From an uncultured Planctomycetaceae bacterium (GTDB taxonomy: Bacteria; Planctomycetota; Planctomycetia; Pirellulales; JAEUIK01): a stretch of DNA of 64,000 nucleotides. This document shows positions 544-51,633 of the stretch, in pieces; positions within the stretch are counted from its first letter, which is position 1, and every line of letters starts with the position of its first letter. Below the pieces are notes generated by a model, which saw only the letters and a list, made by a program, of their open reading frames with translations, had not been told where the DNA came from and searched no databases. The position numbers were made by a program, and so were the translations under genes. The stretch is from assembly GCA_964495375.1 (NCBI GenBank), contig CAZBWM010000012.1, positions 11,323 through 75,322 of the forward strand, read 5' to 3'.

Positions 544-897
544 GGTTGTTGCACTCGCGAGCCGGTTGCGGCTCCGTTGGCGGTAACTGACTACTATTAT
601 TGTGACTTCGGTCGGGTAGTGTGCCAAGTTGAGGGTTGCTGGCACGAAGTCGCAGCCTCGCATGCCGAAAACGCTTGGCCCGCGGGATTGGGGCCGATGT
701 CCTGTTGGACGCATGGCTTAGCCGCCGCGACGACCGTCCGCTTGTCCGGCCATCCCGCTTCTGTTGTAATCCTAGGGCTGGCCCCCGCGGGGGCAATTGC
801 CCGTTCGACCGCTAATTCCACCGAACTTTCGAGAATTGCACGCATGATCGATCGCCTGGCCCCTAATTATTGTGAGGAATCGAAGTCCGCCGGCACG

Positions 898-1935
898 ATG
901 GCGACCGCTGCCGGCAGCCGCTGGAAAGATCTGGCCGATCGCGTGCTGGCCGGGGAGCGGCTGAGTTCGGACGAAGCGCTGGCGATCCTCAGGTCGCCCG
1001 ACGACGAGCTGATGGACTTGCTGGCCGCCACGTACCGCGTCCGCCGGCAGCACTTTGGCAACGCCGTGCAGCTTTACTTCTTGATGAACGCCAAAAGCGG
1101 TCTTTGCCCCGAAGATTGTTCGTACTGCTCGCAGTCGAAGGTCTCCGACGCCGAGATCCCGCGCTACAACCTGCTCGACGAGCAGAAGCTGATGGATGGC
1201 GCTCGCATCGCGGCCGAACGACAGGCCAAAACGTACTGCATCGTGATTTCTGCCCGCGGGCCGAACGAGCGCGAAGTTTCGACGATTGAGCAGATCGTCC
1301 CGAAGATCAAGGCCGCCTATAACCTCAAGGTGTGCGCGTGCCTGGGGCTGTTGCGGCCCGATCAGGCGCAGCGCTTGGCGGCGGCCGGCGTCGATCGCGT
1401 CAACCATAACCTGAACACGAGCGAAGCGTACTACGCCGATATCTGCACCACGCACACCTGGCGCGACCGCGTCGGCACGCTCGAAGCCGTGCGCGACGCC
1501 GGCATGGAGATGTGCTCCGGCGGCATCGTCGGCATGGGGGAGCGCGACGAGGACGTCGTCGAGATGGTCTTCGCGCTGCGCGACCTGGGCGTCCACTCGA
1601 TCCCGATCAACTTCTTGAACGCCATCCCCGGCACGCCGCTGGCGGGCATCAGCCGGTTGAACCCGCGCTACTGCCTGAAGGTGCTCTGCCTGGCGCGGCT
1701 GGCCAACCCGGCCAGCGAGATCCGCATCGCCGGTGGACGCGAGCTGCACCTGCGCAGCTTGCAGCCGCTGGGGCTGTACGCGGCCAACTCGTTGTTCGTC
1801 GGCGACTACCTGACGACCAAGGGGCAGCCGGCCGCCGAAGATTACCACATGCTGGAAGACCTGGGCTTCTCGGTCGCCCGCAATGCCGAGCCGGCGACGG
1901 TGCTGGAAGGCTGCGGGACGGAGTGCGGGGGGTAA
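898..1935 (+). CDS. bioB: biotin synthase (radical SAM)
   Basis: C-terminal 345 aa of ORF 208..1935. CPEDCSYCSQS radical-SAM CxxxCxxC motif, YCIVISARG, NHNLNTS, MCSGGIVGMGE and full-length BioB-like layout. ATG at 898 is in frame; the upstream 230 codons look like a non-coding extension. Confidence 0.9.
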   Translation: MATAAGSRWKDLADRVLAGERLSSDEALAILRSPDDELMDLLAATYRVRRQHFGNAVQLYFLMNAKSGLCPEDCSYCSQSKVSDAEIPRYNLLDEQKLMDGARIAAERQAKTYCIVISARGPNEREVSTIEQIVPKIKAAYNLKVCACLGLLRPDQAQRLAAAGVDRVNHNLNTSEAYYADICTTHTWRDRVGTLEAVRDAGMEMCSGGIVGMGERDEDVVEMVFALRDLGVHSIPINFLNAIPGTPLAGISRLNPRYCLKVLCLARLANPASEIRIAGGRELHLRSLQPLGLYAANSLFVGDYLTTKGQPAAEDYHMLEDLGFSVARNAEPATVLEGCGTECGG

Positions 1936-16163: not shown

Positions 16164-17885
16164 TCAACTTCCCGATCCGTTTGCCGGCCGCGGCGGGGCG
16201 GCCGGCGCTGTTTGTGCAGCAGGCTTGCGCGGCGCGGGACGCGGAACCGTTGGACTGGCTACAGGAGTTGCCGGCGGGTTGGCCACCGGCGCGGCGCTTG
16301 GCTGCCGGGGGCGTTGCGGCGCGGTGGGAGTCGCGGGCTCGTTGGTCGGACTGGCGGCCGCGCCCCCACCAACCGGCATCAAGAAGTTCAGCTTCTCTTG
16401 CCCCATGTTGGTCCAGAAGGTGCCGGGCCCGCTGTGGAACAGCCGCAGTTGCACGTTGGGGTTGAGCTGGTCGGCGAGTGAGTAGCGAAGGAAAGCGTCA
16501 GCGTCGTTCTGAAATGCCGCCAGCGTGAGCGGGAAGAGCGTGTTGTCGGCCGTTTCACGGAGCTTGACGACGGTGGCCTCGGCCTCGCCCAACAGTTGCG
16601 TGCGCTGGGCGTCGAGCTGCGCGATCTTGGCGCCGTAGTCGGCCTTGATTTTCTCGATCTCAGCCTCGACGCCGGTGCCGAGGTTTTCGACGTCGCGATC
16701 GAGCTCAGCCACCATGCGACGGGTTTCGGCTTCGACCTCGGCCACGCGTTGCTTGATCAACTGCTGCTCACGTTCGACGTCGGCCTCGCTTTGGGCGGTC
16801 GCCTCTTTGGCCTTGTTGGTGCGCTCGGTTTCGGCGGCGATCTGTTTATCGCGAATCGGCTGCAGGTAGTTTTCGGGGATGACGATATTGCGAATGAACG
16901 CCGAATGGACGGTGACGTTCTTCACCTTGCAAACGCGCGTCAACTCGTCGGTGAACTCGGTTTGAAAGCGCTCGCGCTTCGAGCCTTCGAGAAAATCTTG
17001 CACGCCGTAGTCGATGCCCTTGTCGCGGCCGATGGCGTGGGCTTGCACGTCGACCACGTTCTGTTCGATCCGCTCGCGGGCACCGTACTCGGCCACCAGG
17101 TTCGGCATGTCGCTGGGCAAAATCTCCCATTCGATCGTGCAGTCCATGCTGATCTGAAAACCACCCCGGCTGGTGAACGTAATGGCGGTATTCTGCTGGG
17201 GATCCTGGTCGTAGCGGAAGGTCGTCTGGAAGATGCCCACCTTGGTCGGCAGCACTTCGTATTCGCGGGTGTTGAGGTAATACAACCCCGGCTCGAGCAC
17301 CTGGGGAACGATCCCCTGGTGCGCCGGAGATTCAGCGAAGCGGCCCTGGCTGGGTAGCCCCAATTTGCGGCGTAGCACGCCGACAAAACCGGCCGGAATA
17401 TCGACGGCGTCGACCAACTCGACGTCGTAGCCATGTTGATTGATGCGGTAAGTGCCCGGCGGCAGCACGTCGCGACGGATGCCCCGCTCTTTGTCGCTGA
17501 TCGCCAGCACGCGCCCCGGCGGTAGCGGTTTGCCACCTTTCGCGGTGACGACGCCAACCTTGCCGGCCGGCACGGTGAGATTGTCTTCGAGTTCCCAGGT
17601 ATAGAGGATCGGCATCACGAAGTGCCAACCCTCGCCTTGCACTTCGCGGAGCACGCCTTTCTGGCCGCGCTCAGCAAGAACTTCATCGGCCGGAAGCTGC
17701 GCGCCTTCTTTGGCCACGATTACGAGATGCTTGCCCTGCGGCACGTAGGCAAAGAACTCGTTCCAGGCGAGCAAGAACAAGACCAACAGCGAGAAGGTAA
17801 GCACCGCCAGCACGATCAAGCGCCGCCGCCAAATCTTGAAATTGAAGGAGCGGCCGCGGGCGGAGAAGTCAAATGCCTGACTCAT
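16164..17885 (-). CDS. SPFH (band 7/flotillin-like) domain membrane protein with coiled coil and Pro/Ala-rich tail
   Basis: N-terminal TM LIVLAVLTFSLLVLFLLAW. SPFH core (GKHLVIVAKEG..GWHFVMPILY; ITFTSRGGFQISMDCTIEWEI..; VTVHSAFIRNIVIPENYLQPIRDKQIAAE). Long coiled coil. Paralogous to 18267..20120. Confidence 0.75.
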   Translation of the reverse strand: MSQAFDFSARGRSFNFKIWRRRLIVLAVLTFSLLVLFLLAWNEFFAYVPQGKHLVIVAKEGAQLPADEVLAERGQKGVLREVQGEGWHFVMPILYTWELEDNLTVPAGKVGVVTAKGGKPLPPGRVLAISDKERGIRRDVLPPGTYRINQHGYDVELVDAVDIPAGFVGVLRRKLGLPSQGRFAESPAHQGIVPQVLEPGLYYLNTREYEVLPTKVGIFQTTFRYDQDPQQNTAITFTSRGGFQISMDCTIEWEILPSDMPNLVAEYGARERIEQNVVDVQAHAIGRDKGIDYGVQDFLEGSKRERFQTEFTDELTRVCKVKNVTVHSAFIRNIVIPENYLQPIRDKQIAAETERTNKAKEATAQSEADVEREQQLIKQRVAEVEAETRRMVAELDRDVENLGTGVEAEIEKIKADYGAKIAQLDAQRTQLLGEAEATVVKLRETADNTLFPLTLAAFQNDADAFLRYSLADQLNPNVQLRLFHSGPGTFWTNMGQEKLNFLMPVGGGAAASPTNEPATPTAPQRPRQPSAAPVANPPATPVASPTVPRPAPRKPAAQTAPAAPPRPANGSGS

Positions 17886-17920: not shown

Positions 17921-18215
17921 GGTCTAGTGGTTAGCCTGCGGTGAGCTTGTCGAACCGTGGCGAGTGGTCAGCCTGCGGCCCTCGGTCGGATCCCCAGGTC
18001 GGTCGCCTGATCTGTTACTCCACTGCTCGCGGCCACAGGCCTCTTCAATAAAGTTGCCCGGGAATTTGCGTCCGGGTGCGTCCGGGTGACTTGATGTGCG
18101 ACGATAAATCAAATGGATGCAACACCTTAGGGCGACAGGTGTCCGCCCAATTTTGCGTCCGGGTGATCGTCCGGCTTGCGTCCGGGTCCTAGGGTTTGCG
18201 TCCGGGTGGCGGGGC
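17921..18215. repeat. intergenic element A: array of TTGCGTCC-GGGTG direct repeats, paralogous to 26976-27230
   Basis: TTGCGTCCGGGTG at 18066, 18153 and 18196. TTGCGTCCGGGTC at 18176. CGTCCGGGTG at 18079. CGTCCGG at 18168. Shares ACTCCACTGCTC (18017-18028) and the lead-in CTCTTCAATAAAGTTGCCCGGGAATTTGCGTCC with element B. Confidence 0.7.
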
Positions 18216-18266
18216 CGTGGCTTGACTCGAGTGCAAACGTATTCTCTGACCAATCGCCACGACTCA

Positions 18267-20120
18267 CTACTCCGGCACTGGCGTGACGACCGGAGGCGCG
18301 GCCGCCGAAGCCGCCTCGGTCGTCGTCGTTGGTGATGTTGTCGGTTCGACCGTCGGTTCGCTGACTGGCACGGTCACGGGGGCAATCGTCGGCGGCGCCG
18401 GTTGGTTCGCCGGCGGTTGCCGCGTCGTCATGTATTCGGCGACCAGACGGGCGAACTCGCTGTCGTCGGAAGCAAAAATCTCCGAGATCGCCGGACCCAG
18501 CCGCGACAGAATCTGATACTGCGCGAACTGCTGGGCACTACCGAAACCGTCGACCGCCGTCTGCAAGCCCGAGACGGTCGCCTCGTTCTGCAACTGAATG
18601 ACCGCGGCGTCAGCGCGGCCGTGGGCCAGCGTGGCTTCGGCCTGCTGGCGGGCCGCGTCGAGTGTCACTTGGGCATTGGTCAGATCCTGCCTGAGGCGCG
18701 ATTCTTCGACTTCGAGCATTTGGGTGGCCTTGGTCTTGGCCTGCACGACGCGCGTCTCGGCTTCCACTTTTTCGCGAGCCTGCTGCTTGAGCGCCTCCTT
18801 GGCCTTGAGTTCTTGTTCGGCCTGATACTGGCGAAGCCGCACCACGTTTTTCTCGCGCTCGACCCGGGCAAGTTCACGCTGCGAGATCTGATCAGAAAGC
18901 TCATCGGGAGGTCGCATGTCGGCCAAGGTCACGGCGCGGACATCGACCCCCATTTCGGTGCAGCGTGGTTTAACCTTGGAGAGCAGGGCCTTCTGCAATA
19001 CTTCGCGCGCGTTCGTCGGTTTGACGGGGGGCGTAGCGGCAACGACGGGCTGACCCTCGGCGGGCTCAGCAGCGGCGACCGGAGCGGCATCAGGCTTCGC
19101 GGCTTCGTCAGGCTTAGCGTCGGCTGGCTGCGCGGCGCCCTCGCCTGCGGGTGCGGCCGGCGGCACGATGTCCTCGGGTTCGGCGGCCGTGAGAATGAAA
19201 TCGCGGGCGTCGAAGTTGCTTCCCTCGATCCGCGCGTAGCCGCGAATGTGGGGCAGAATCACCTTCTGCAGCACTTCGTTGGCTTGCTGCTCCTCGGGGG
19301 TGCTGTCCGCCTGGTGCAAAATCCCCTCGTCGGTGATGCGGACCAACAACTGCGAGGCGCTCTCGGGCCGCACGGCGTACTCGACGACGACATAGGGCTT
19401 AATGATGAAGCCGTCGCGCGAGGGGAATTCGATGTCGCCCAACCCCACGCGATGACTGCGGATATCGATCGGATCGATCGTCTCGACGTAGGGATTGATG
19501 TAGTAAGTGCCCGGCGGCAGTGGTTTGTCCTGTACGCCGCGATAGCCCTCGGGGACGGTGTAGGGATTGCTGCGCTCGTTGGCGGCGAGCTGGCTGGGGT
19601 CTTTGCCGATCTTGAGCGTGCGCACGCCGACCTGATTGACTTTGACTTCGCGGGCCGGCACCTTCTCCCACGTGTAGGCGTAGGGGTTCAGTCGGTAGCT
19701 GCCTGGCACGAGCACTTCCTTGACGATGCCGCGTTCCTTCTTGGGCTCGTCGCGAGCGAGAATATCGCCGGCCTCGATCCGCTTGTGATCGATCGGCTCG
19801 CCGTACATCCGTGTCAACACCAGGCACTGCCCGGGCTCTACATAGAGCAGATCCTTCATTTCATAGGTCCAGAGGATCGGGTTCAAAAAGTGCCGACCTT
19901 CGGGAAGCACGTCGAGCATGACCCCCTGGTAGCTCGCGTCGCGAGCGACGATATCCCCTTCAGGAAGTGGTGTACCCCAGCGATGGATGACTACCAGGAA
20001 CTTGCCGGGGGGGACCTCGATGCGCTCGATTTCCCAGTGCCAGATTTGTTGGACGATGCCCAGGCCGACGATCAGGGCGACCAGCGTGGTCCAGAAGCGC
20101 GCTCGTTTGTAGAAAGACAC
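18267..20120 (-). CDS. SPFH (band 7/flotillin-like) domain membrane protein, paralog 2
   Basis: GTG start 20120. TM TTLVALIVGLGIV. PPGKFLVVIHRWG..GRHFLNPILW SPFH entry motif. Coiled coil (RELARVEREKNVVRLRQYQAEQELKAKEALKQQAREKVEAE). Thr/Pro/Ala-rich C-terminal tail. Confidence 0.75.
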   Translation of the reverse strand: MSFYKRARFWTTLVALIVGLGIVQQIWHWEIERIEVPPGKFLVVIHRWGTPLPEGDIVARDASYQGVMLDVLPEGRHFLNPILWTYEMKDLLYVEPGQCLVLTRMYGEPIDHKRIEAGDILARDEPKKERGIVKEVLVPGSYRLNPYAYTWEKVPAREVKVNQVGVRTLKIGKDPSQLAANERSNPYTVPEGYRGVQDKPLPPGTYYINPYVETIDPIDIRSHRVGLGDIEFPSRDGFIIKPYVVVEYAVRPESASQLLVRITDEGILHQADSTPEEQQANEVLQKVILPHIRGYARIEGSNFDARDFILTAAEPEDIVPPAAPAGEGAAQPADAKPDEAAKPDAAPVAAAEPAEGQPVVAATPPVKPTNAREVLQKALLSKVKPRCTEMGVDVRAVTLADMRPPDELSDQISQRELARVEREKNVVRLRQYQAEQELKAKEALKQQAREKVEAETRVVQAKTKATQMLEVEESRLRQDLTNAQVTLDAARQQAEATLAHGRADAAVIQLQNEATVSGLQTAVDGFGSAQQFAQYQILSRLGPAISEIFASDDSEFARLVAEYMTTRQPPANQPAPPTIAPVTVPVSEPTVEPTTSPTTTTEAASAAAPPVVTPVPE

Positions 20121-26975: not shown

Positions 26976-27230
26976 GTAGTGGCTAGTGCTCAGTGGTTAG
27001 TGGTTCGAGAACACCACTCCACTGCTCAACTGATATCCTGCTCACCTTCTCGCCGGCAGGGCGCACCCCTCTTCTATAAAGTGTTCCGGGATTTTGCGTC
27101 CTAACCGTCCTAAGCCCGACAAAACAGCACCTAAAGCCTTGCCAGGTTAGCACTTGACCTTAGGACGCAAAACCGAAAAAGCTTGCGTCCTAAACCGTCC
27201 TAAGAGGGCCGTTTTGCGTCCTAAGCCTGA
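26976..27230. repeat. intergenic element B: array of TTGCGTCC-TAA(G) repeats, paralogous to 17921-18215
   Basis: TTGCGTCCTAA 27094-27104 followed by CCGTCCTAAG 27105-27114. Inverted copy cttaggacgcaaaac 27159-27173. TTGCGTCCTAAA 27183-27194 followed by CCGTCCTAAG 27195-27204. gttttgcgtcctaag 27211-27225. ACTCCACTGCTC at 27016-27027. Confidence 0.7.
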
Positions 27231-27259
27231 ATCGCGAAGCCTTGGACGATGAAGATTTT

Positions 27260-27336
27260 GACCACGGATGACACCGATCGCACGGATGGTTGAATTCGTG
27301 TTCCGTTCATCCGTGTGATCCGTGACATCCATGGTC
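27260..27336. repeat. imperfect palindromic 'CACGGATG' hairpin element
   Basis: gaccacggatgacaccgatcgcacggatgg versus the reverse complement of ccgttcatccgtgtgatccgtgacatccatggtc. Arms are roughly 80% complementary. Confidence 0.5.
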
Positions 27337-27708
27337 AACGTGGTCTTGGTTTTTGATTCGCGCGGCGAGTCGTGCTTAGCGCTTGGTCATCGTGGTGTCG
27401 TTGTGGTGACTCTCGATGCGGCGCATGTTCTGGCGGCGCGCAAAATGCCAATGCATCCACAGAAGAACACGCCGAAGGACACAGAAGTTCGATCGGTGAT
27501 GCCGTTGGGCGTGGCCACGATCGTTCTGTGATCGTCTGCGCCTTCTGCTGATGTATTCTGTAATTGTTGGCGCGCACGGCGAGCGGGCTCGCGCCAAGCC
27601 GACCCCTTGAACGCATGCGTGCGTGGGCTCCTTGGTGGCAAGTATTTGATTGCAGTCCGCGGCGCGCACCGTATGCGCACGCGGAATTGACTCGCGTCCC
27701 CTTTCGTG

Positions 27709-29137: not shown

Positions 29138-29222
29138 GTCGCGCGCGAGGCAACGGCCCCCTCACCCCTAACCCCTCTCCCGCAAGGGGAGAGGGGAACC
29201 GGATGTTGCGTCGCGCGCGAGG
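29138..29222. mobile_element. candidate miniature insertion: 59-bp CCCTCACCC/GAGGGG hairpin element (family copy 3) flanked by a perfect 13-bp direct repeat
   Basis: gtcgcgcgcgagg occurs at 29138-29150 and again at 29210-29222. The enclosed 29151-29209 starts caacgg and ends ccggatgttgc (short terminal inverted match) and contains ccctcacccctaacccctctcccgcaaggggagaggggaac. Confidence 0.4.
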
Positions 29223-33360: not shown

Positions 33361-33602
33361 GGCCTGCTCCTCTGTTGGTTCCCCCGAACGGACGTGGCAG
33401 CCCGAGCCGAAGATGGACTGGCCCAGGCTGACGACTACGACACCACAACCGCGAGTACCCCAGTCAGCATATCGCTGGCGAGCGGCGGGGGGCAAATTTA
33501 TTCGGGGCGGAGGGCGGGAGACGGCTGACAAGAGAGCAAGACCTTGCGGCATTCGAGCGAATTACGCGGCGAATCTAAGTGTATTGGCGGCGCGATCACC
33601 GA

Positions 33603-33628
33603 GGTGCTGCGCACGCCCTACAAAGCTC
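33603..33628 (+). repeat. GGTGYGYTGCGCACRCCCTACAAAGCTC repeat, forward copy
   Basis: ggtgctgcgcacgccctacaaagctc. Confidence 0.65.
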
Positions 33629-33776: not shown

Positions 33777-33995
33777 GGCACTGCTTGTTCGTCGGCGGAT
33801 ACGTCGATTCGTTAGGACTACACGAATGACGCCGACGACCAAGCAATGGCACACGGGTCGATATCACGCTGGTTCCTGCGCACGCCCCACGAGCGACCCC
33901 GCGTGAAGTGCTGATCGCGAGAACATGATGCTCCGCCAAACGAGCTAGCGCGCGGGATGAATCCCGGGGCTAACAAGATCGCGGCGAACGATCCG

Positions 33996-34024
33996 TGGTG
34001 TGCTGCGCACACCCTACAAAGCTC
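33996..34024 (+). repeat. GGTG..GCGCACACCCTACAAAGCTC repeat, forward copy abutting the stop of 34038..36338
   Basis: ggtgtgctgcgcacaccctacaaagctct. Confidence 0.65.
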
Positions 34025-36383: not shown

Positions 36384-36476
36384 TTGTAGGGTGCGTGGAA
36401 CGCACCAACTCGTCGCTTCGCGCTTGGTCAATGCAACCACTACGCAACGGTGTGTTGCGCACACCCTACAGAACTC
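36384..36476. repeat. inverted pair of CCCTACA repeats (reverse copy 36384-36406, forward copy 36449-36476)
   Basis: ttgtagggtgcgtggaacgcacc ... ggtgtgttgcgcacaccctacagaactc. Lies between the divergent genes 34038..36338 and hsp20. Confidence 0.65.
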
Positions 36477-36604: not shown

Positions 36605-36686
36605 CCGAACGGTGCCAGGAACCGATTCAAGCAGCGCGTCACCCCGTTGCTATGCATCGATTGAAACGGTTCCTGGCACCGATCGG
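36605..36686. repeat. 82-bp palindromic element CCGAACGGTGYCAGGAACCGATTCAAG..loop..GAAACGGTTCCTGRCACCG (copy 1)
   Basis: The arms pair at 24 of 26 positions. This copy has C/G (gccagg/cctggc) where copies 2 and 3 have T/A (gtcagg/cctgac). Confidence 0.75.
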
Positions 36687-37021
36687 AGAACCCGGCGCGC
36701 GGGCAGACTGCCAGGCATCTGCCAGTTTGACCGCGACATTCTGTCACCCCCAACGGCGGCGAACCGCGCCCCGGCGGCGGCGTAGAAAAAGTGGCCAAGG
36801 GGCCTCGCCCTCTCGGGGCTCCGGAGGTTGGTACCGCTCCTGCGTGAGCGCGAATTTGCTGGCTGGTCCGGAGACGAGTGGAGCGCCGCTACCTCACGAC
36901 AGGCGGGGGGCGTCGCCCAGGCTGGCGAGGCCCCGGGGGCCCGAACAAGAAGAGGCACTTTTCAACATCCATTCAACAGAGCAGGCATATCAGGGTTTAT
37001 TAGGGAAAGGAGGCACAAACC

Positions 37022-37715: not shown

Positions 37716-37776
37716 CTGTAGGGTGTGCGCAGCACAGCAGCGATCCTGGTGCGTTTCACGCACCCTACAAAGCTCC
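37716..37776. repeat. inverted pair of CCCTACA repeats (reverse 37716-37736, forward 37748-37776)
   Basis: ctgtagggtgtgcgcagcaca ... ggtgcgtttcacgcaccctacaaagctcc. Lies between hsp20 and ygiQ. Confidence 0.65.
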
Positions 37777-48870: not shown

Positions 48871-48951
48871 CCGAACGGTGTCAGGAACCGATTCAAGCAA
48901 GGCCTCACCAACATCTGGGCAACAATGGAAACGGTTCCTGACACCGTTCGG
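48871..48951. repeat. palindromic GGTGTCAGGAACCG element (copy 2)
   Basis: ccgaacggtgtcaggaaccgattcaagc...ggaaacggttcctgacaccgttcgg, with a 20-bp perfect stem. Confidence 0.75.
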
Positions 48952-48983
48952 GCTGCCCGCTGACCAGACTGACCCACAGTTAT

Positions 48984-51335: not shown

Positions 51336-51417
51336 CCGAACGGTGTCAGGAACCGATTCAAGTACGTGCCAACGATTAGAGACTTGCCGGTTGAATCGGT
51401 TCCTGACACCGATTGGG
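51336..51417. repeat. palindromic GGTGTCAGGAACCG element (copy 3)
   Basis: ccgaacggtgtcaggaaccgattcaag...ttgaatcggttcctgacaccgattggg, with a 21-bp perfect stem. Confidence 0.75.
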
Positions 51418-51633
51418 CGCGGCTGGGCGGTCGCGGATTGCGCATCGCGGCTGTAACATTCGGCAGAGGTTCGCGCCAGGCGACGAGGAGAGGCCCCCGT
51501 CGCACGGCCCCTGCTGGGCAAAAACCCGCGGGACGAATCTGGCAACACGACGGGGCGATTTCTTAGCAGCGCCGCCTGAGCGGCCCTAAACCGGAACATC
51601 TTCGCAGCTGCACCTGAGAGAGGATCAATTGCC

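Follow-up and report, generated by a model that had tools for sequence, protein, structure and literature searches.

Orphan iteron arrays dispersed in Pirellulales chromosomes resemble origin modules of primase-helicase plasmids and islands

We analyzed a 64,000-nucleotide stretch of contig CAZBWM010000012.1 from an uncultured Planctomycetaceae bacterium of the order Pirellulales, hereafter called the window, in which a first-pass annotation had pointed out an array of CGTCC-containing repeats between two SPFH genes (locus A) and a second array about 9 kb away (locus B). Each of the two loci is probably an orphan copy of an iteron-type origin module of the kind carried by plasmids and integrative elements, present here without an initiator gene. 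The arrays are homologous in architecture to arrays that are linked to helicase genes in other organisms, they occur in many copies per genome, and they differ in presence between relatives. We infer, in addition, that a protein binds the orphan arrays, and what such binding would lead to is considered in the Discussion.

Results

Two repeat arrays in the window

Locus A consists of six CGTCC-GG(GTG) units (window positions 18066-18208). It lies in a spacer of 381 bp, and the SPFH genes on either side, 16164..17885 and 18267..20120 (Pfam Band_7), are both on the minus strand. Locus B, which is located 3' of an ABC-2 permease gene, has six CGTCC-TAA units (27094-27225), one of them inverted. 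The motifs described in the first-pass annotation were all recovered. In locus A, these are TTGCGTCCGGGT(G/C) at 18066, 18153, 18176 and 18196, CGTCCGGGTG at 18079 and CGTCCGG at 18168. Locus B has TTGCGTCC-TAA(C/A/G) at 27094, 27183 and 27214, CGTCCTAAG at 27106 and 27196, and inverted CCTTAGGACGCAA at 27158-27170. The unit of the module is (TT)GCGTCC followed by a flank of 2-5 nt, which is GGGTG at locus A and TAA at locus B. Five to six units, all on one helical face, are placed about 10 or 20 bp apart around an AT-richer spacer of 45-65 bp; one of them has the inverted orientation, and in locus A it is degenerate. The central spacers have 48-51% G+C, compared with 63.9% for the whole window.

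These repeats are concentrated far beyond expectation. CGTCCGGGT was observed 6 times in the window against 1.06 expected, and CGTCCTAA 6 times against 0.74 expected; for neither did any of 100 shuffles reach 6. The core TTGCGTCC was present 10 times in the window against 3.7 expected, with 8 of the 10 inside the two clusters. The lead-in CTCTTCWATAAAGT...CCGGGAWTTTGCGTCC was exclusive to the two loci (CTCTTCWATAAAGT occurs in the window only at 18041 and 27069), and nhmmer profiles run over the 64 kb recovered the two array copies and no more.

On the plus strand, locus A begins with the lead-in CCTCTTCAATAAAGTTGCCCGGGAAT (18040..18065), a conserved left element end that precedes nearly all copies of the family described below and is homologous to the outer array end of the Gemmataceae locus L091. 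It is followed by a forward iteron doublet with a 10 bp period, TTGCGTCCGGGTG and then CGTCCGGGTG (18066..18088), by the central spacer (18089..18152; 48% G+C compared with 64% for the window), which includes a degenerate inverted unit CCTTAGGGCGACA at 18125-18137, and by distal forward iterons (18153..18208) comprising TTGCGTCCGGGTG (18153), CGTCCGG (18168), TTGCGTCCGGGTC (18176) and TTGCGTCCGGGTG (18196). The spacings of these distal units, 12, 11 and 20 bp, are consistent with the family peaks at 9-12 and 18-21 bp.

Locus B has the same plan, with the lead-in CTCTTCTATAAAGTGTTCCGGGATT (27069..27093), a forward doublet of TTGCGTCCTAAC and CGTCCTAAG (27094..27114) and a central spacer with 51% G+C (27115..27157), all on the plus strand. 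The inverted iteron follows (27158..27170, minus strand; CCTTAGGACGCAA on the plus strand), and then plus-strand distal forward iterons (27183..27225), namely TTGCGTCCTAAA (27183), CGTCCTAAG (27196) and TTGCGTCCTAAG (27214). An extra inverted CGTCC unit with an AA-type flank lies at 27240..27251 on the minus strand (CCTTGGACGATG on the plus strand) and may be what is left of the far arm of a complete origin.

The first-pass annotation regarded the whole spacer as a paralog of 26976-27230. This was only partly true because the shared 5' motifs, including ACTCCACTGCTC (18017 and 27016), are generic hairpin sequence; the element itself extends at locus A from about 18029/18040 to about 18209/18245. 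Positions 17921-18028, including ACTCCACTGCTC, are outside the element and form a low-complexity hairpin (GTGGTTAGTGG.../...CCACTGCTCAC, also with a CCACTAACCAC arm) that occurs array-free in the corresponding spacer of relatives.

Long imperfect hairpins of this type were abundant in intergenic regions, both in the window (17921-18028, 26976-27040 and 27255-27345) and in the spacers of the related loci L005, L097, L099 and L010. They consist of degenerate units of 6-8 nt together with the complements of these units (GTGGTTAGTGG.../...CCACTAACCAC; CACGGATGACAC.../...GTGATCCGTG), the unit varies between loci and between relatives, and they stand 3' of genes like terminators. In L048, such hairpins also form a free-standing repeat family.

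Homologous arrays in and beside primase-helicase genes

A first scan at the DNA level, with one genome per species and the pattern TTGCGTCC-N4-5-CGTCC-N60-78-TTGCGTCC, returned at least 85 stretches. Matches outside Pirellulales came from Alpha- and Gammaproteobacteria, Chloroflexi, Acidobacteria, candidate division NPL-UPA2, Gemmataceae and a Thermoplasmata archaeon. In all 13 such loci among the matches listed, a count that leaves out Pirellulales, 9-mer tandem repeats, other low-complexity repeats and plain chance matches, the array overlapped the 3' end of a gene of one and the same protein family. The same linkage was found in 6 of 15 matches on viral contigs. At every tabulated locus where a CGTCC array was adjacent to or embedded in the helicase gene (24 of 24), it lay no more than about 650 bp from the end of the ATPase domain. 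Gene-linked arrays were usually inside the open reading frame (ORF), where they encode a low-complexity tail. The plain tandem 9-mer arrays (TTGCGTCCN)n of unrelated genomes, such as Bartonella, Chlamydiae, Oligosphaeraceae and others (L023, L031, L085-L089 and L096), matched the pattern via periodicity alone.

A P-loop ATPase core (Walker A GEQGSAKST), for which Pfam has no model, characterizes the protein family, and thousands of homologues exist. Its members are primase/superfamily 3 (SF3) helicases with N-terminal fusions to Toprim/DnaG-zinc, DUF3854 or PrimPol domains. They are carried by small plasmids of Methanothrix, Methylobacterium, Stanieria and Streptomyces (including pFP11) and by islands with HTH_17 and integrase genes.

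Several gene-linked arrays resemble the window arrays beyond the core. Lead-in, core, doublet and layout are common to the window arrays and to L091, L013, L165 and L168. In L091, the Pirellulales-type lead-in CCAGATAAGAAAAGGTCCGGGATTTTGCGTCC is present at one end of the array and an inverted lead-in at the other. In L013, the order of forward doublet, spacer, inverted unit and forward units is the same as in the orphans, and three inverted units follow. On account of the L091 lead-in and the L013 layout, the orphan element is homologous to one part of the gene-linked arrays. The term iteron array, used by the first-pass annotation, is the best description, and homologous arrays are situated in or beside an initiator-helicase gene.

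In more distant homologues (33-39% identical; five viral contigs), the place that follows the ATPase domain was taken by short repeats of other sequence, both direct and inverted. These repeats, CTGACACC, GGGGACAA, GGTGACA and ACCGCCTCC, flank an AT- or purine-rich spacer, and one example is the complete 12 kb plasmid pH6Ac of Methanothrix harundinacea. Across the family (L116-L121 and L123, regions just 3' of the ATPase domain), the presumed origin is in the gene's own 3' coding end, with lineage-specific cores (CTGACACC, GGGGACAA, GGTGACA, ACCGCCTCC or GCGTCC). The homologue on the Methylobacterium plasmid had no obvious array directly 3' of the gene, and hence the array-in-gene arrangement is common and not universal. 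Streptomyces plasmid pFP11 has ten GTGCGTCCCT/AGGGACGCAC units with a GCGTCC core about 550 bp downstream of its helicase homologue. It has been reported that the basic replicons of pFP11 and pFP1 consist of rep and iterons bound by RepA, and RepA-iteron binding was shown for pWTY27 (PMC3583192). These theta plasmids (pFP11, pFP1 and pWTY27) are similar to the present system in combining rep with iterons, and pFP11 also in having a helicase homologue together with a GCGTCC-core array.

A close known counterpart is the origin of Staphylococcus aureus pathogenicity islands (SaPIs). A SaPI origin contains 6-12 penta- or hexanucleotide iterons directly downstream of rep, with a central AT-rich region; the iterons are oppositely oriented on its two sides and are recognized by the C-terminal winged-helix domain of Rep, which melts the origin and then self-loads (PMC9371898). 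The arrays match this description in core length, copy number, orientation, position, composition and phasing, and the complete gene-linked relatives have the AT-rich centre with at least two opposed iterons on each side. By this comparison, the gene-linked arrays look like replication origins. The likeness to the pri-rep-ori regions of SaPIs and other phage-inducible chromosomal islands (PICIs; Rep1, PriRep5) and to Cch of the staphylococcal cassette SCCmec includes an AT-rich centre flanked by 6-12 iterons of both orientations, each with a core of 5-6 nt, and the placement of this origin where the helicase gene has its 3' end. As in SaPIs and PICIs, the iteron sequences are element-specific and the helicase has a C-terminal winged helix (PMC9371898), which in the present family is putative. 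SaPI/PICI helicases and SCCmec Cch had no detectable sequence similarity to the helicase family found here, and the array of the present family is usually inside the ORF and encodes a low-complexity tail. The window copies also differ in that they have no rep gene and at most one inverted unit and are multiplied to dozens per chromosome.

Similarity at the structural level was examined with the AlphaFold model of a Pirellulales homologue, P0241 (pLDDT 82.5), which ends in a helix and a beta-hairpin. A search of PDB chains with the helicase sequence gave nothing, and only the fold search with the P0241 model produced matches: PriRep of SaPI5 (PriRep5, 7OLA), SCCmec Cch (5DGK), poxvirus D5/E5, African swine fever virus PrimPol, NrS-1 and the PriRep1-dsDNA complex (7PDS). 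The C-terminal helix and beta-hairpin of the model are compatible with a winged helix.

Dispersal and flank classes of the arrays in Pirellulales

In Pirellulales, the array is a dispersed element of about 170-220 bp. The first scan detected at least 31 array loci in the metagenome-assembled genome (MAG) GCA_019745975.1, which is also the source of an array-free orthologous locus (L007), and at least 16 loci (at least 24 copies) in MAG JBFXAH. A metagenome scan with lead-in and doublet added 74 further loci, mostly from one sample series, with a lead-in near-identical to that of the window. The common layout is lead-in, forward doublet, a 45-65 bp spacer, one inverted unit and then 2-3 forward units; in other subfamilies the lead-in gives way to unrelated sequence (CTCTCGCTCCATGGCCG...).

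The copies can be classified by the 2-5 nt located 3' of CGTCC. The metagenome loci comprised 45 GG(GTG), 14 AA, 8 TA and 4 CG copies, besides minor classes. In more than 150 further copies the flank was uniform within each locus and the classes were few, so the proposal of the first-pass annotation that a constant core with a locus-consistent flank marks distinct specificity classes held. GG-class copies, including locus A, have a degenerate inverted unit only, and their module of about 110 bp is often reiterated. Tandem clusters mix classes (CG+AA+TT, TA+GG, CG+GG and GG+AA) and are not duplicates of one class. Mixed-class clusters were seen in L048 (780-1640) as well as in L025, L049, L035, L030, L067, L141, L148, L155, L164, L170 and L185.

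It is possible, if doubtful, that the arrays are a selfish dispersed repeat with no present function, similar to miniature inverted-repeat transposable elements (MITEs). Under such a scenario, an origin fragment was spread by mobility or recombination, and its units are alike via recent spread and gene conversion. The arrays are short, non-coding, present in multiple copies per genome and polymorphic between relatives, as MITEs are. The high copy number, the frequent location of copies at contig ends and the presence/absence polymorphism are all consistent with such a repeat. So are the clusters with other intergenic repeat hairpins and the exchange of one array class for another throughout orthologous locus B (see below), which suggests conversion between copies. 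However, terminal inverted repeats were not seen in the orphan copies (the empty sites of relatives being too diverged to define a target-site duplication), and a search for recurrent neighbors revealed no recurring gene and no transposase or integrase beside the Pirellulales copies. The pattern of conservation also argues against it: among 51 distinct GG-class copies, iteron columns were 90-100% identical, whereas a 15-nt spacer segment of the same copies was 30-50% identical. The units of locus A are perfect even though its centre is only about 65% like relatives' copies. Unit phasing is preserved as well, adjacent units of the same orientation being spaced by 9-12 bp (n=481) or 18-21 bp (n=154) and seldom by 13-17 bp (n=12).

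Like MITEs, repetitive extragenic palindromes (REPs) and bacterial interspersed mosaic elements (BIMEs), the arrays are short, high-copy, intergenic and variably present in close relatives. Unlike them, the arrays have no REP-like palindrome, transposase or REP-associated tyrosine transposase, no terminal inverted repeats were seen in the orphan copies, and the internal structure of the arrays is origin-like. Ends of a Tn7- or Mu-like transposon were also considered and were rejected, since neither a transposase nor an integrase gene turned up around the Pirellulales copies and terminal inverted repeats were not seen.

Comparison of orthologous loci

The window is part of a Pirellulales metagenome contig of 114.6 kb. 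The gene cluster around locus A (PspA-like, SPFH, SPFH and MMPL genes, with TadE/Tad and ABC transporter genes at the other side) was compared with that of related genomes. Gene order was unchanged in all of them, and the SPFH protein was 84-91% identical. In six relatives (L005, L007, L008, L010, L097 and L099), the SPFH-SPFH spacer was 92-170 bp long and contained the hairpin only, with no array. The window spacer has about 215 bp more (18029..18245 on the plus strand, ends accurate to about 15 bp), and this extra DNA sits inside the terminator-like hairpin. On comparison of these spacers, locus A is an insertion specific to its lineage, placed within a terminator hairpin. The neighboring SPFH genes also share a 28 nt stretch with 93% identity (17438-17465 and 19493-19520), which fits tandem paralogues.

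Locus B was present in L005 and absent in L007 and L008. Comparison of the L005 copy (854-1001, minus strand) with window positions 27086-27233 showed that all units, including the inverted one, were CGTCC-AA(A/G) and not CGTCC-TAA; the inverted copy CTTGGACGCAA had changed alongside forward GCGTCCAAA. The central spacer was replaced, and the lead-in and the downstream hairpin were conserved. This switch from TA to AA indicates that the arrays are polymorphic and that the class can be exchanged as a block.

These data bear on the proposal of the first-pass annotation that the array, in the upstream region of 16164..17885, may be an operator array. An operator array for a transcription factor controlling the downstream SPFH gene, or the whole PspA/SPFH cluster, would agree with the position of locus A upstream of this gene and with a sigma-54 activator gene a few kb away on the same contig. 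However, since the array is absent from the spacer of six relatives in which gene order is identical, locus A is not a conserved upstream regulatory region of 16164..17885, and one of the outcomes that the first-pass annotation itself had named as speaking against its claim, a lack of conservation at orthologous loci of relatives, was observed. Besides, the same element occurs beside unrelated genes at more than 100 other loci, and the second window copy is 3' of an ABC-2 permease gene. An operator at this locus is therefore most improbable, and from the comparison of genomes the arrays do not appear to regulate the SPFH/PspA genes. A sigma-54 promoter or PspF site was rejected as well (no GG-N10-GC was found, and the array is missing in relatives). 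The idea of two related but distinct binders fared better in one respect, as the class structure supports distinct specificities, and the link to the SPFH/PspA cluster is unsupported.

Evaluation of the arrays as RNA genes

The first-pass annotation alternatively proposed a structured RNA family. In the form of a multi-copy small RNA gene, the lead-in WATAAAGT would serve as a -10 box, the GCGUCC-x motifs would pair with the inverted copy or act as a sponge for a protein or RNA, and transcription would stop at the downstream hairpin. Some features are in line with this model: the first unit is preceded, at a distance of 12-14 nt, by -10-like AATAAAGT/TATAAAGT, locus B is followed by a long hairpin that has a T-run (27255-27350), each unit of the tandem clusters precedes a long hairpin, and the inverted unit is complementary to the forward units, with covarying flanks. 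Yet the sole consensus helix is formed by the inverted unit and one forward unit, covarying pairs exist only between repeat copies, and GG-class copies have no complementary unit. Three of four whole-locus folds were no better than shuffles (z = 0.16, -0.20 and 0.65); the minus strand of locus B was somewhat better (z = -1.88; 7 of 200 shuffles as good). For central segments, mean z was -0.7 and -0.4. Rfam searches at gathering and permissive thresholds yielded nothing relevant, with sub-threshold miRNA-like hits on hairpins only, and promoter and terminator scans called no sigma-70-like promoter at either locus. Furthermore, the lead-in is swapped for CTCTCGCTCCATGGCCG... in other subfamilies and forms an inverted pair around the gene-embedded array of L091, the hairpins also occur array-free as an independent repeat family, and homologous arrays lie in protein-coding sequence. 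A small RNA gene is thus unlikely, and the absence of an Rfam hit, of excess folding energy and of covariation beyond that between repeat copies goes against a structured RNA family in general. Two more specific candidates were dropped. A central hairpin with a GTTAAGT loop and apparent compensatory changes was unsupported when 37 copies were folded against shuffles, and a CsrA-type GGA sponge on the minus strand was abandoned in view of arrays inside ORFs and beside helicase genes.

Stand-alone Rep-like genes in Pirellulales

Rep-like helicases that stand alone, about 620-700 aa in length (P0241-P0250), are encoded by related Pirellulales; one is annotated from a Pirellulales MAG, and another originates from the sample that also yielded relative L010. 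Their genes have no embedded array and no integrase, occupy non-syntenic chromosomal sites and have a common TTGACA-N17-CATAAT promoter. A conserved segment, CCTGGCCTCCTTTT.CCTTG.C...TGTGTACATAATACTG, was seen together with this promoter upstream of two such genes (L200, 9930-10000; L201, 5440-5512), and judging from its sequence the TGTACA-centred near-palindrome in it could be an operator. The stand-alone Rep-like helicases, or Reps of incoming elements, are the obvious candidate binders of the orphan arrays.

Other repeats in the window

Three further repeats were noted in the window. A 29-36 nt repeat (..GGTGTGCTGCGCACACCCTACAAAGCTC) with an internal palindrome occurs four times at irregular spacing over 4 kb (33593-33628, 33989-34024, 36441-36476 and 37747-37775), an inverted-repeat element of about 85 nt (CCGAACGGTGTCAGGAACCGATTCAAGC ... 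GAAACGGTTCCTGACACCGTTCGG) three times (36605-36688, 48871-48953 and 51336-51418), and near-identical GC-rich palindromes (CCCTCTCCCGCGAGGGGAGAGGGG) are located at 1972-1995, 2766-2789 and 29173-29196.

Discussion

In this study, we found that two repeat arrays of a Pirellulales contig belong to a large dispersed family and are probably orphan copies of an iteron-type origin module. In autonomous relatives, the complete module, with further inverted units, resides in or just 3' of a primase/SF3-helicase initiator gene, and such genes are found on small plasmids and on islands that have an integrase. If the initiator works like SaPI Rep, its C-terminal winged-helix domain would bind the iterons, and the protein would oligomerize on both sides of the AT-rich spacer, melt the spacer and load itself as a helicase. 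Since no initiator gene is nearby, dozens of copies exist per genome and locus A is an insertion, the window copies, if bound, would act only in trans, as arrays for Rep-like helicases. They may either titrate the helicase, as an incompatibility decoy, or fire as satellite origins. Because orphans have one or no intact inverted unit and so do not follow the SaPI rule for a firing origin, titration seems at least as likely as satellite replication. Like SaPI-like origins, the window loci do have several phased short repeats with an invariant 5-8 nt core and are homologous to arrays of autonomous elements.

Several observations weigh against this interpretation. The window loci do not have two or more opposed iterons on each side of an AT-rich centre, and they are not positioned in or directly after an initiator gene. 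Orphans have a single inverted unit, and in the GG class none is intact; such copies may bind without firing or be inert. The 64 kb window contained no Rep homologue. In three contigs, orphan arrays and stand-alone Rep-like genes are 3-6 kb apart, a distance that could be chance at such copy density, and no Rep homologue was otherwise detected within 8 kb of any Pirellulales copy. A 170 bp origin fragment would also have had to multiply to dozens of sharp-ended copies, and terminal inverted repeats were not seen; gene conversion among copies, and not selection, could explain why the units are so highly conserved. Binding by this helicase clade is drawn from analogy, and the helicase homologue on pFP11 may be the published RepA and its GTGCGTCCCT array the mapped iteron.

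An iteron origin embedded in the coding sequence of its own initiator is known from phage lambda, where ori is inside gene O. The gene-linked arrays share this arrangement, and the difference is that lambda O is not a helicase. Extra iteron clusters serve copy control or incompatibility in several systems, such as P1 incA, P4 crr, the Vibrio chromosome-2 39-mers and crtS, and E. coli datA. Similar to the orphan arrays, these are initiator-binding arrays off the origin that act in trans or by titration and handcuffing. In contrast, they are on the initiator's own replicon or occur once per chromosome, whereas here dozens of arrays of at least four classes are scattered across the chromosome with no linked initiator.

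A more specific version of the orphan-origin interpretation is that a plasmid replication system was domesticated in this Pirellulales clade, as might be suggested by stand-alone SF3 Rep-like genes together with dozens of orphan arrays of at least four classes, often in mixed clusters. The arrays could then provide decoy immunity, titrating the initiators of incoming primase-helicase plasmids and islands, or could serve as conditional secondary origins that amplify chromosomal regions in situ. We consider domestication a tentative possibility.

The type of array is already known, as iteron origins bound by self-loading helicases occur in SaPIs and some plasmids, and it is the high-copy, multi-class family of chromosomal orphans that, as far as we searched, is new. 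A literature search with the 8-mer retrieved primers only, and a survey of planctomycete plasmids reported RPA-type initiators only and did not mention the present helicase family. As far as we searched, the literature contains no description of a very large primase/SF3-helicase family with the origin in its own 3' coding end, of a subgroup that keeps the GCGTCC core from Planctomycetota to an archaeon, of an origin module that has got loose in the chromosomes of Pirellulales as an orphan repeat of high copy number, with classes switching as a block, or of stand-alone Rep-like genes in the same Pirellulales clade. On the practical side, the arrays break assemblies and offer candidate origins and initiators for vectors in Planctomycetota, where genetic tools are scarce. 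If the orphan arrays bind initiators, they would amount to plasmid incompatibility in chromosomal form or else to a set of satellite origins.

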